A stretch of 16,033 bases of DNA from a virus (lineage: Duplodnaviria > Heunggongvirae > Uroviricota > Caudoviricetes). Positions 1-3,000 of the stretch are shown here, piece after piece; within the stretch, counting starts at the first letter, position 1; the number at the start of each line of letters is the position of its first letter. The stretch spans positions 1 to 16,033 of the IMG/VR virus record IMGVR_UViG_2778261151_000016. One strand, 5' to 3'. Position numbers: made by a program.

Positions 1-3000
1 GTCACCCCGGCGTCCGCGGAAGATGAACAGATGCCCGGAGAACGGGTCATCCTTCAGGACGTTCTGAACTTTTGATGCCAGGCCGTTAAAACCATTTCGC
101 ATGTCGGTGATACCGGCAACCAGCCAGATACGCGAACCGGCAGGGAGAGATATCATCAGTGGCTGCTCCCTTTCATTTCGCGGATAAGTGTCTGTAATAA
201 CGCCGGTGTCAGTTCACCTTTCAGCCTGAGAGTTCCGGCCGACAGAACCAGCTCACAGCACAGACTGTCGGGCATCTGTTCAGGTATCTGCACTGGTGCC
301 GGGATTTTATTATCCGGCTCCGGAGTTAACGTCACGGGAAGTAGCGATGTTTCATGTTCGCCGGTCGGCTGCAGGCCGCCGTTACGCCAGAGATGCCGCC
401 AGTTAAAGAGCAGGTTATCGTTGATTCCGTTCTCACGAGCTATTTGTGCGACACAGGCACCGGGTAAAAGAGTTTGCTGAACAAGTCTCCATTTAAACTC
501 CGGTGAAAATCGGTTCCGGCGGTTTTTCTCTGTTTTCACAGTCTGAGTTACTGTCGGGGCTGAAGGGTATCGCCCCGGGAACAAAGCCCGGGCCAGTTGC
601 ACGCAGGAATATTCCCCGGAAAGAGGCCAGTCAGTGAATACCTGGTGAAATCGCCTCACCAGAGAAAAAATGGCGGTTTTGCTGATACCGGTCTGCGCAG
701 AAATGCGCGGGTACGACAGTGACTCGTCAAATCTCAGTTGTAGCACACGCAGGATCAATTCCGGATTGTCTGCCAGTACCGCTTTTCGTGCATTCATCTT
801 AAATGTCCCTTTACTGCGAAAATGGACATTAGTATCGGAAACAGGAAAGGGAGGCGAAAGACGGTTTAAATGAGACGGTTACCCCCCAAATAAAAAGGCC
901 TGCGATTACCAGCAGGCCTGTTATTAGCTCAGTGATGTAGATGGTCATTTAATACTCCGTCACGTTTTCCTGTCGCCACGCCTCGTCATATTCCGATTTC
1001 GGCATATTGGCGATGTAGCTATATGGCGATCCTGATTCAAGTTGCAGGAACTGGTGCGATTGCTCGTCAAGGAACAACGGGACACCACCTTCCCAACCTT
1101 CGCCGTTACGTTGTTTTTCAAGCATCAAAACAGATGCCGGAGATGCCAGTAGCTGTTCGTCCTTCTCTGACATCTTTTCACCACTCTGAACTCTCTGTAA
1201 CGCTCTCTCGCGAGCCTTGTTACGCCAGATGATGAAAAGGTTGTCTGTCAGGTCTGTTATCGCTCCAGAGCCTTTTACGTCCATTTTCCCGGTTGGTTTT
1301 TCTTCGCTGTCTCCTTTTCGCGAGTGAGTAACGAGAATGACGTGGGAGTTTGTTTTGTTTTTGAAGTCGCAAATCGAGTCAACAAACGCCTTCTGCCCGT
1401 TATAGTCATCGTCGCCTATGCCACATTTCATCAGGCTGTCGATGATGAATAACTGGATCCCGTATCGGCGGCGAGCGTAGTCGAATATTTCGATCAGCCT
1501 GTCGGCTTTCGCCGTTCCGGTCAGGCCAAACACCCAAAGTCTTTCGTCATAAAATTTAAATGCAGAGTCAATTTCCAGCACTGGCGGCATCTTGCAGCAC
1601 GTTGCCTGACGGGTAAGTCGCTTAAGGAGAATACCAGGCTTCAGCTCAAGTGACGCGATGCACGTCTTCACACCCTGACGCATTGCCTCAAGTGCCATAT
1701 GCCCGACAACCTCGGTGTTATGCGTCGCCACATATCCCCTGGTTACATACAGGTGGCGAGGGTGATCGACCATAATACACAAGCATTCTGCATTGCCGAT
1801 TTTTTCAACATTCCTGACGAATACCCCACAGCCCTCGAATCGATGCGCAGTTAATCTGCCATTGAGTCGTGGTGAACGGATGGCCTCCCTGATTTCTCTT
1901 GTCAGTCTGATTCTTGCCTCGTATGAATCCATCCCATGCCGCTTATCGTCCTTGTATGTGTATGTCACGCCAGTTTTAACTCGCGTCCGGCATGACCCGC
2001 CGAGTGAGTTAACCAGTTGAACAACCCCATTGCGCAGTTCTTCACTTGCTGAGGAAAAAACAAGCGTTCCATCCTTCTCGACATACCCATCCGTTTCAAG
2101 CAGACCACACAGCATGCCTATACGCGTTGATTTATTTGCGGAAAAAAACACACGAGGGATGAATTTGTTTTTTGCTGTGCACCCCATTAGTCCATAACCT
2201 CGCAGGGTCTCCATGAGTGGATTTACCTGACCACGCGCCGTTGATATCAGCCAGTCCTTACCATCTCCAGAGAAGTTGTAATCAGGCAGTTCAGCCTTCA
2301 TACGCTCGATCATGTATGGCTCGACGTTTGAAAACTTCACGCTCCCATTGCTAAGACTACCATCCCCGAGAAGGGAGCCGATAACCCATGCTAATAGCTC
2401 TGAGTGGTCGCCAAAGTCACCAGTTATTTCAGGAATCCTAACGCCATTTTTGTGCCTCTTCGTTTCACTCAACCGCTTCAACCCGAAGGTATCTATCACG
2501 CGGCGTTTCTCGCCTTTCGTGAATCCACGACTAGTGACCTCCCATAGGTGATCGCCTGCGCAATCAACATAACGACCATCTTCAAATGTGACTCGGTAAA
2601 CATCTCTAACACCCTGCGGGAATATCCCAGTGACAGTTGACGGATTGCCGTCTACTGACGCCACCTGATCGCCAATTTTTACATTCCCGTGAGTAGTCCA
2701 TGTCCCATCAGCTAAAAGAATAGGCTCATTCAGTGGGCATGCCTTTCCGTGACCGTTCACACCATTGACCAGCGTCAACTCTGCCTCACGGAACTGGAAT
2801 TTATCTGCCAGAGATTCCCACGGTGGATTAAACAGATACTGCTGCTTGCCGTAGAAAGCGTTGATAGTGTCCTGGTAAAACTCTCGCGCACTGTAGAGTT
2901 CTTCAGGATCGAAGTAGGATGCCGTGCCGATGTACTGCCAGATTTCATCCTCGGTAACACCGTTCATCAGGCATTCGTTGATGTCTTTGTACGGCAGAGT

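Follow-up and report, generated by a model that had tools for sequence, protein, structure and literature searches.

Insertion sequences of the IS66 family transpose by means of TnpC, a DDE transposase which acts on GTAA-type terminal inverted repeats and generates an 8-bp target duplication, while TnpA and TnpB are accessory proteins. IS679, a member which was reportedly first described by Han and colleagues in 2001 on plasmid pB171 of EPEC B171, is said to be 2,704 bp long and to require all of TnpA, TnpB and TnpC for its transposition. To our knowledge, the accessory proteins of the family still have no established role.

Here we analyzed a window of 16,033 nucleotides (the whole of a stretch of Caudoviricetes DNA, IMG/VR record IMGVR_UViG_2778261151_000016), in which an element of an already known type, an ordinary E. 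coli IS, stands at the left edge. Positions 1-882 are best read as the tnpA-proximal (left) part of a 2,695-bp IS679-type IS (IS66 family) that transposed into a lambdoid prophage integrated beside ybhC, and we put the probability of this reading at about 0.93.

The element and its boundary in the prophage

The features on which the comparison depends are the following (positions are those of the window):

1..156, minus strand: 5' part of tnpB (IS66 Orf2-type accessory protein), with its ATG at 156..154; the first 52 codons, the rest lying past the left edge
156..797, minus strand: tnpA, 213 aa with an ATG start; NF038385 271.8 bits over residues 12-195
802..830, minus strand: conserved palindrome with arms AATGTCCATTT (830..820) and AAAGGGACATT (812..802), which pair over 11 bp with a single mismatch around a loop of 7 nt
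859..882, minus strand: left terminal inverted repeat (IRL), 5'-GTAACCGTCTCATTTAAACCGTCT
883..890, no strand assigned: predicted 8-bp target-site duplication, one copy, CCCCCAAA (TTTGGGGG in the phage sense)
886..919, minus strand: intrinsic terminator of the primase/helicase gene from the terminator scan (stem 919..896, T-rich tail 895..886)
949..3855, minus strand: prophage primase/helicase gene, 968 aa and containing an intein, the last phage gene before the IS

Several lines of evidence bore out the assignment to the IS66 family, which an earlier note had made from the sequence: i) TnpA scored above the cut-offs of the IS66 TnpA models NF038385 (271.8 bits; cut-off 150) and NF047595 (83.3 bits; cut-off 74); ii) the partial tnpB, directly after tnpA, matched Pfam PF05717 (TnpB_IS66; E=5e-15) and NCBIfam NF033819 (54.7 bits against a cut-off of 50, with 52 residues present); iii) a GTAA-type imperfect terminal inverted repeat was present in the window as the IRL, ending at 882, and had its matching right repeat (IRR) GTAAGCGGCTCGCCAGAACCGT in complete copies. 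The two genes overlap by TGATG (158..154), as had been described: the minus-strand sequence at 160..151 is ACTGATGATA, in which the TGA stop of tnpA (158..156) and the ATG of tnpB (156..154) share one base.

The terminus of the IS is base 882, from which the minus strand starts 5'-GTAACCGTCTC.... In over 4000 E. coli records the Megablast matches to copies of the IS ended at 882-884, the ends defined by target-site duplications in two loci (L002 and L008) gave the same last base, and the terminal ~24 nt of the IS were kept in related elements. Bases 883..948 are phage DNA, between the IS end and the primase/helicase stop codon. The 150 nt that had been given as the distance from tnpA and tnpB to the primase/helicase terminator hold, as 151 nt, between the tnpA ATG at 797 and the stop codon at 949, but the terminator itself is only ~90-100 nt away.

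Over positions 1-882 the window had 0 mismatches to the complete 2,695-bp copies in six loci (L008, L028-L031 and L036). Complete copies encode tnpA (213 aa), tnpB (115 aa) and tnpC (523 aa), the last with the domains LZ_Tnp_IS66, zf-IS66 and DDE_Tnp_IS66 (PF03050, PF13005, PF13007), and they are bounded by the imperfect inverted repeats GTAACCGTCTC... and GTAAGCGGCTCG.... The copy in L002, the TnpC of which scored 476 bits on NF033517, is a near-identical variant with about 20 mismatches, and a close copy was found in about 8% of complete E. coli genomes. Among the complete 2,695-bp copies examined, six distinct perfect 8-bp duplications were identified (CATCAGCA, GAAAGAAG, GCACGGGT, AGTTGTCA, GCATTGAT and CTCTTTCC); in five of the copies showing duplications, the 882 bp shared with the window were identical. 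Since such duplications flank full copies at six different sites, the element is mobile rather than a fixed operon. Neither of the findings that the earlier note had listed as fatal to its reading (no IS66 inverted repeats or target duplication; a non-mobile operon) was shown to apply, the IRL being present in the window and the duplications flanking full copies elsewhere.

The 2,695-bp copies were about 98.9% (98-99%) identical in nucleotide sequence to widespread copies of 2,704 bp, the ISfinder convention for isoforms being at least 95% nucleotide identity, and the 9-bp difference in length is a 3-codon gap in tnpA (213 versus 216 aa). A copy of the 2,704-bp form in strain F6326-C1 has been named IS679-like (PMC8454413). 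We apply the name IS679 to the element in the window as a putative one, based on its length, the ~98.9% identity to the 2,704-bp elements and that one paper's label rather than on the ISfinder reference.

On the phage side, 88% of positions 883-16033 matched the prophage beside ybhC in FDAARGOS_944, at 99.2% identity, and the arm is lambdoid in layout, with int, xis, exo/bet/gam, N, cI, cro, cII and the replication genes colinear. The suspicion that the phage genome is interrupted here was supported by the comparison with uninterrupted relatives which had been proposed as a check: from 883 onward the sequence is the unbroken terminator region found in many prophages, and uninterrupted relatives pass from the terminator straight into ninB or a small ORF. 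The FDAARGOS_944 prophage and others run on into ninB, ninE, rusA, ninH, Q and the lysis genes, and the IS at the left edge accounts for the missing nin, Q and lysis genes in the window.

The primase/helicase gene and ninB are separated by a spacer of 77 bp, and the IS lies within it, 3 bases past the end of the terminator tail and 11 bp short of where ninB starts in relatives, in the orientation of the phage early-right operon. The empty site in L005 (...TTTTTATTTGGGGGAGAGGGAAGTCATG), together with the 8-bp duplications of the family, predicts CCCCCAAA as the duplicated target; one flank of it is inside the window, while the second copy would lie past the other IS end, outside. A simple insertion would place ~1.8 kb of further IS to the left of the window (the rest of tnpB, tnpC and the end ...CTGGCGAGCCGCTTAC, in the tnpA sense), followed by a second TTTGGGGG and then by AGAGGGAAGTCATG, the start of ninB. 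Such an insertion parts the replication genes from the nin/Q region and may have a polar effect on late-gene activation. A 40-mer spanning the IS/phage junction had 0 exact matches in genome and metagenome contig collections, the complete E. coli genomes gave 0 records for the junction at a coverage of at least 80%, and when proteins identical to the primase/helicase and to TnpA were looked up, many contexts came back, among which this one was missing.

Alternatively, the IS may mark the boundary of a rearrangement, the prophage being truncated and its nin, Q, lysis and morphogenesis genes lost by IS-mediated deletion or by recombination between IS copies. In favour of this, recombination would find substrates in the many identical copies of the IS that the genomes bearing it contain (at up to 22 places in one genome); moreover one pair of copies (L027 and L033) was without target duplication, so such rearrangements do occur, and the closest prophage relative is also damaged by an IS (ISEc20 in its replication gene). 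However, there was no sign of deletion within the window, and the site at which the IS entered is clean and intergenic. Furthermore, the identical IS in L008, which entered its prophage 55 bp from this site, did so by simple insertion and left a duplication, and that prophage goes on through ninB, ninE and the Ant genes. We consider a rearrangement unlikely, though its probability is not negligible.

A partial or dead remnant of the IS, for example one cut by another element past the window edge, is an appreciably less probable account. Remnants and interrupted copies are common (the tnpC of the copy in L001 is split by IS21, and the copy in L035 has frameshifts in both tnpB and tnpC), and the window ends after 52 tnpB codons. 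Yet all 882 bases match intact, recently transposed copies exactly, and tnpA is intact.

The long TnpA

The tnpA ORF of 213 aa was recovered with its ATG start as the earlier note had called it. Its description there as unusually long is correct against the ~110-aa TnpA of classical IS66 elements, but not within the IS679 subgroup, where 213-216 aa is normal. The 213-aa protein is no anomaly: it is the standard form of the curated subfamily NF038385, which has many homologues, and long TnpA homologues of 202-229 aa, with identities of 41-94%, occur across Enterobacterales.

TnpA consists of a helical, HTH-like N-terminal domain (residues ~5-72), a linker, HTH_Tnp_1 (residues 92-145) and a C-terminal beta-hairpin plus helix. 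Of these, the Pfam match to HTH_Tnp_1 (PF01527, E=2e-16) covers only residues 92-145. Conservation of the N-terminal 75 residues, some positions being invariant, extended over 22 homologues with identities as low as 41%, and AlphaFold gave a confident helical domain there (pLDDT 81-90). Hence of the "additional N-terminal HTH" that had been proposed, the extra conserved domain stands, while its HTH nature is only probable (best Pfam E=0.003, a weak match to Sigma70_r4_2 at residues 17-49). Weak HTH matches to the N-terminus were concordant (Sigma70_r4_2, SorC, DeoR and LsrR); a Foldseek search of the domain against PDB found no match at E<=0.001, only short HTH matches, and a PDB profile search found no significant HTH match (best E 0.015). 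The conserved domain is probably a three-helix HTH placed before the usual ~113-aa IS66 TnpA.

That the length is an artefact, a mis-called start or an unrelated upstream ORF fused to a short TnpA, can be dismissed as scarcely credible: the classical TnpA is ~110 aa, NF047595 (113 positions) matches only residues 93-207 and the adjoining IS66 element in L001 has a TnpA of 109 aa, but the first internal ATG of tnpA does not come before residue 169, and fusion or mis-calling was rejected on the NCBIfam model NF038385, which covers the N-terminal part, on the alignment of the 22 homologues with its invariant positions and on the AlphaFold model.

A conserved palindrome at the start of tnpA

The 7-bp inverted repeat that had been noticed just upstream of tnpA (AATGTCC at 802..808, GGACATT at 824..830) is indeed there, and if one mismatch is allowed it lengthens to 11 bp (802..812 / 820..830). 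The 3' arm, which includes a Shine-Dalgarno-like AAGGGA, stops 4 nt short of the tnpA ATG. Taken alone, the perfect 7-bp repeat is marginal: when the 85-nt leader was shuffled 1000 times, 47 of the shuffled sequences reached it. The palindrome recurred at IS nt 51-84 in relatives whose TnpA is 41-74% identical: its arms were 10-11 bp in four relatives (0-1/1000 shuffles each), and two others had perfect cores of 6-7 bp. Because the same palindrome stands at the same place in distant relatives, we take it to be real. Its loop varies between 7 and 12 nt (7 here, 8-12 in relatives) and its hairpin energies between -7.5 and -13.9 kcal/mol, the weakest stem being that of the window copy (-7.5, with one mismatch). 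One decayed Yersinia copy has direct repeats in place of the inverted ones.

Other candidate features of the leader were rejected. In the minimum-energy fold of the 103-nt leader the Shine-Dalgarno sequence pairs with an upstream UCCCUUU (z=-2.0); the conserved palindrome was preferred because the UCCCUUU partner is missing in relatives. Likewise, an 11-codon upstream ORF (829..794), which starts in the palindrome and overlaps tnpA by ATGA, was not accepted as conserved, since both its frame and its stop vary among relatives. A promoter scan of positions 700-1000 found no sigma-70 consensus promoter upstream of tnpA. The palindrome is located just downstream of a weak -10-like hexamer.

Judged from sequence, the palindrome is probably regulatory. 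Holding the ribosome-binding site of tnpA, it would most likely limit tnpA expression. It may serve as an operator for TnpA; alternatively, it may act as an RNA hairpin that hides the ribosome-binding site on transcripts entering from outside, which is relevant here because phage transcription enters the IS in the sense direction. We suggest, tentatively and as one possibility, that the HTH-like N-terminal domain of TnpA and the palindrome TAATGTCCAT-N7-12-ATGGACATTA form a subgroup-specific autoregulatory module, in which TnpA would shut its own operon or the hairpin would block read-in translation. As far as we found, neither a TnpA operator nor RNA-hairpin control has been described for IS66-family elements. 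It is this palindrome, conserved where tnpA begins, that makes the one mildly new point here, and it provides a handle on how IS66-family elements control their own expression.

Comparison with known systems

TnpA had weak matches to "IS2 repressor TnpA" and to the N-terminus of IS3 transposase. The OrfA (InsA) regulators of the IS3/IS2 family resemble it in the HTH_Tnp_1 fold of its second domain (PF01527, E=2e-16) and in being small DNA-binding proteins encoded by the first gene of the element; on the other hand, they belong to another IS family, which is without TnpB and has a different transposase. A repressor role for the IS66 TnpA would be drawn from analogy with IS3/IS2 OrfA only.

The classical short-TnpA IS66 elements (NF047595 "ISRel24 TnpA"; the neighbour in L001) share with complete copies of the element TnpB (PF05717), the TnpC DDE transposase, GTAA terminal repeats and the 8-bp duplication, and their TnpA is homologous to the C-terminal ~113 aa of the one here (NF047595 83 bits, residues 93-207). 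However, their TnpA is ~110 aa and is without the ~75-aa N-terminal domain. In the single short-TnpA example inspected, the TGTCCAT palindrome was absent upstream of tnpA, which is weak evidence, since the copy in question has a truncated left end.

The long-TnpA IS66 elements of Escherichia, Salmonella, Pantoea and Yersinia (L016, L019, L021, L023 and L024) have the same TnpA N-terminal domain, with TnpA of 202-225 aa, TnpB of 115 aa and TnpC of 523-547 aa. They also share the conserved IRL GTAAsCGkCTCAT..ACCGTCT, and the palindrome TAATGTCCAT-N-ATGGACATTA stands equally far from the IS end. They differ in that TnpA identity is only 41-74% and the palindrome loop is 8-12 nt, versus 7 nt in the window.

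With IS679 the element, as seen in its complete copies, shares the gene order tnpA-tnpB-tnpC, the tnpB start overlapping the TGA stop of tnpA, the GTAA-type imperfect terminal repeats and the 8-bp target duplication; the variant here differs from it in its length of 2,695 bp and in a TnpA of 213 instead of 216 aa.

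Boundary, genes and copies of the element

A megablast search with window bases 1-1000 matched 4,075 records among 5,426 complete genomes of E. coli; in 441 of the genomes (8%) a copy spans 80% or more of the query. The matches to IS copies ended at 882-884 and uninterrupted prophages aligned from base 883 on at 100% identity; thus the IS terminus is base 882, reading 5'-GTAACCGTCTCATTTAAACCGTCT on the minus strand. The features at this end of the window are:

797 to 156, minus strand: tnpA, ATG-initiated ORF of 213 aa
156..154 (ATG), minus strand: start of tnpB, of which 52 codons precede the left window edge
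919..896 (stem), T-tract to 886, minus strand: intrinsic terminator of the primase/helicase gene (terminator scan)

The earlier note had read the two genes as IS66-family tnpA and tnpB, which was borne out by the matches of TnpA to the IS66-type model NF038385 (271.8 bits; cut-off 150) and of TnpB to PF05717 (E=5e-15) and NF033819 (54.7 bits; cut-off 50); TnpA residues 92-145 also matched PF01527. Moreover the TGATG overlap it described is present, the tnpA stop (TGA, 158..156) and the tnpB ATG (156..154) having one base in common.

Complete 2,695-bp copies at five other loci (L008, L028, L029, L030 and L031) match the 882 bases without a mismatch; each of them, and also L036, where the L028 insertion recurs in another genome, carried a perfect 8-bp duplication. 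A near-identical complete copy of 2,695 bp on an EIEC pINV plasmid (L002), with ends GTAACCGTCTC... and GTAAGCGGCTCG..., was flanked by the 8-bp duplication GGAAAGAG. Six different duplications were found among the complete 2,695-bp copies, the L002/L032/L034 copy included: CATCAGCA, GAAAGAAG, GCACGGGT, AGTTGTCA, GCATTGAT and CTCTTTCC. These copies encode TnpA (213 aa), TnpB (115 aa) and TnpC (523 aa; domains LZ_Tnp_IS66, zf-IS66 and DDE_Tnp_IS66), the TnpC of L002 scoring 476 bits on NF033517, and the three-gene layout was kept in every inspected relative with intact downstream genes; L025 is a contig ending within tnpC and L026 a decayed remnant. That identical copies occur at many sites, flanked by target duplications, means recent transposition, and a non-mobile operon, the alternative named in the earlier note, therefore does not apply.

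Several plasmid copies of the IS are hosted by a group II intron reverse-transcriptase/maturase gene (L002, 1299..2222 and 4893..5654; also L027, L032 and L034), with the duplication GGAAAGAG/CTCTTTCC. The converse relation has been reported, group II intron E.c.I3 targeting IS679 (PMC3522654).

Insertion into a lambdoid prophage

The int-to-replication arm of a lambdoid prophage occupies window 883-16033, and 88% of this stretch is matched at 99.2% identity by the prophage adjoining ybhC in FDAARGOS_944. Where relatives share the identical 968-aa primase/helicase, 77 bp of spacer separate the gene from ninB, beyond which come ninE, further genes, Q and the lysis genes; the empty site reads ...GGCCTTTTTATTTGGGGG / AGAGGGAAGTCATG. 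The IS follows TTTGGGGG and separates the terminator from the ninB ribosome-binding site; its tnpA is oriented as the phage operon. Therefore the prophage is interrupted by the IS, as had been suspected from the window alone, and may be truncated as well. The 150 nt placed between tnpA and the terminator holds for the distance from the tnpA start to the primase/helicase stop codon at 949 (151 nt); the terminator itself is ~90-100 nt away. This IS/phage junction was found in none of the searched collections (complete E. coli genomes, genome contigs and metagenome contigs).

In another genome (L008, 9029..11723 of GCA_014155055.1) the identical IS was inserted independently 55 bp further along the prophage backbone, inside ninB, in the same orientation and with the duplication CATCAGCA; there the prophage goes on past the far side of the IS. 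Two independent insertions within 55 bp may reflect chance or a local target preference; comparison of eight target sequences gave no obvious consensus.

The FDAARGOS_944 prophage, the closest complete-genome relative, carries the IS110-family ISEc20 (L004, 10081..12284) inside its replication-initiator gene (HTH_36, O-like), unlike the window, which has an intact 243-aa ORF at that position (4086..4817). Plasmids of the same strain carry a 2,695-bp IS679-type element (99.9% identity), and the prophage lineage occurs in IS-rich hosts.

Within the 968-aa primase/helicase lies an intein of 342 aa (window 1717..2742, minus strand), which includes a LAGLIDADG homing-endonuclease domain and sits precisely within the Walker A motif (GVNGHGK / ACPLNE...YVATHN / TEVVG). 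In L003 an intein-less 626-aa homologue has GVNGHGKTEVVG at this point, with 96-99% identity on either side; since the inserted block begins Ala-Cys, it is ambiguous which residue is the first of the intein. Versions with the intein are found in Stx phages (Min27, 24B, Stx2a_F403 and F451) and Klebsiella phage phiKp_30, and the intein-less gene in many P22-like and lambdoid phages; annotations label the protein just "toprim domain-containing protein" or "primase".

A conserved palindrome at the tnpA start

The inverted repeat AATGTCC (802..808) / GGACATT (824..830) noticed earlier is present. The perfect 7-bp repeat alone was reached by 47 of 1000 shuffles of the 85-nt leader. Across tnpA upstream regions from eight lineages, the left arm (A/G)TGTCCA was found at IS nt 54-60 in all eight and the inverted partner in seven (degenerate in one of these, L025), with the consensus TAATGTCCAT-N7-12-ATGGACATTA. 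Moreover four relatives have arms of 10-11 bp, lengths reached by 0-1 of 1000 shuffles in each case, and one position co-varies (TAATG.../...CATTA vs TAGTG.../...CACTA). The predicted hairpin is weakest in the window copy (-7.5 kcal/mol; one A.G mismatch), relatives reaching -13.9 kcal/mol. Between the end of the 3' arm and the start codon lie 3 or 4 nt, and this arm contains the sole Shine-Dalgarno-like sequence (AAGGGA in the window copy). A consensus promoter scan upstream of tnpA found none; direct reading gave a weak -10-like hexamer 0-2 nt upstream of the left arm (GATACT here; GACAAT, AAAAAT and GAAAAT in relatives).

Each element has the motif once, and not at its other end, which speaks for a role in expression rather than in recognition of the ends; regulation of tnpA is the motif's likely function. 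As to the means, variable loop length leans to a hairpin, and the near-invariant arms, together with a decayed Yersinia copy having two direct TGTCCATTATTT repeats in place of the palindrome, lean to a protein-binding site. The conserved palindrome is the sole point slightly beyond annotation.

An 11-codon mini-ORF (794..829, minus strand; MSIFAVKGHLR) has its ATG inside the left arm, and its TGA overlaps the tnpA ATG (ATGA). Some relatives have this ATG in the tnpA frame, and there gene callers lengthen the protein (e.g., P0049, 225 aa, "MSIIF..."); others have an early stop, and among the relatives compared it was not conserved as an ORF. Furthermore, 21 nt of the leader (830..850, minus strand; CTCCCTTTCCTGTTTCCGATA in mRNA sense) are 76% complementary to the tnpA end (166..186, minus strand), which lies just before the tnpB start and holds the tnpB Shine-Dalgarno-like GAAAGGGAG; the same pair occurs in L002 (4166-4186 / 4833-4853, repeat pair I1). 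The leader CUCCCUUUC has another partner in the minimum-energy fold, the tnpA Shine-Dalgarno sequence; the leader segment was not conserved in the distant relatives compared.

Long TnpA and assignment to IS679

Classical IS66 elements have a TnpA of ~110 aa, as does an IS66-family element neighbouring the L001 copy (109 aa), whereas TnpA here has 213 aa. The model NF047595 (113 positions) matches residues 93-207 only, while NF038385 (190 positions) spans residues 12-195. A search of 5.8 billion proteins gave homologues of full length (202-229 aa) from Escherichia, Salmonella, Pantoea and Yersinia (identity down to 41%, query coverage 92-94%), and L19, L21, F23, E25, R49, F50, W57, P58 and L72 of the N-terminal part were invariant in a 22-sequence alignment. 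Thus the protein called unusually long exceeds the classical size but is normal in the NF038385 family, and its N-terminal domain is a conserved feature and no oddity.

An AlphaFold2 model built on this alignment predicted i) a helical N-terminal domain (helices 12-23, 29-36, 40-53 and 65-72; pLDDT 81-90); ii) a disordered linker (79-92) and an HTH_Tnp_1 domain (helices 99-109, 116-122 and 127-138); and iii) a further disordered stretch followed by a C-terminal beta-hairpin and helix. The N-terminal domain weakly matched Sigma70_r4_2 (E=0.003) and, by profile search, SorC (E=0.015) and DeoR (E=0.09), and Foldseek returned SorC, LsrR and DeoR DNA-binding domains (probability 0.95-0.99 but E>0.1). 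Since these HTH matches, though weak, agree with one another, the additional N-terminal HTH proposed earlier is probably right.

At least 80% of the element is present in 1,293 plasmid records. Many plasmid copies, 98-99% identical to it, are exactly 2,704 bp, reportedly the length published for IS679 by Han et al. in 2001. The single copy on the F6326-C1 chromosome (megablast match H21) measures 891 bp against 882 query bases, hence is of the 2,704-bp type, and an insertion in this chromosome was named IS679-like, IS66 family (PMC8454413). Three codons missing from tnpA (EQM---PDS vs EQTDTPPDS) account for the 9-bp difference, TnpA having 213 aa here and 216 aa in the 2,704-bp copies. On these near-identical copies, the published label and the tnpA gap, we file the element as a putative IS679 isoform. 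For a curated subfamily a TnpA of this length is the norm, and the insertion, correctly recognised at first reading, is an ordinary IS66-family element of the IS679 type.
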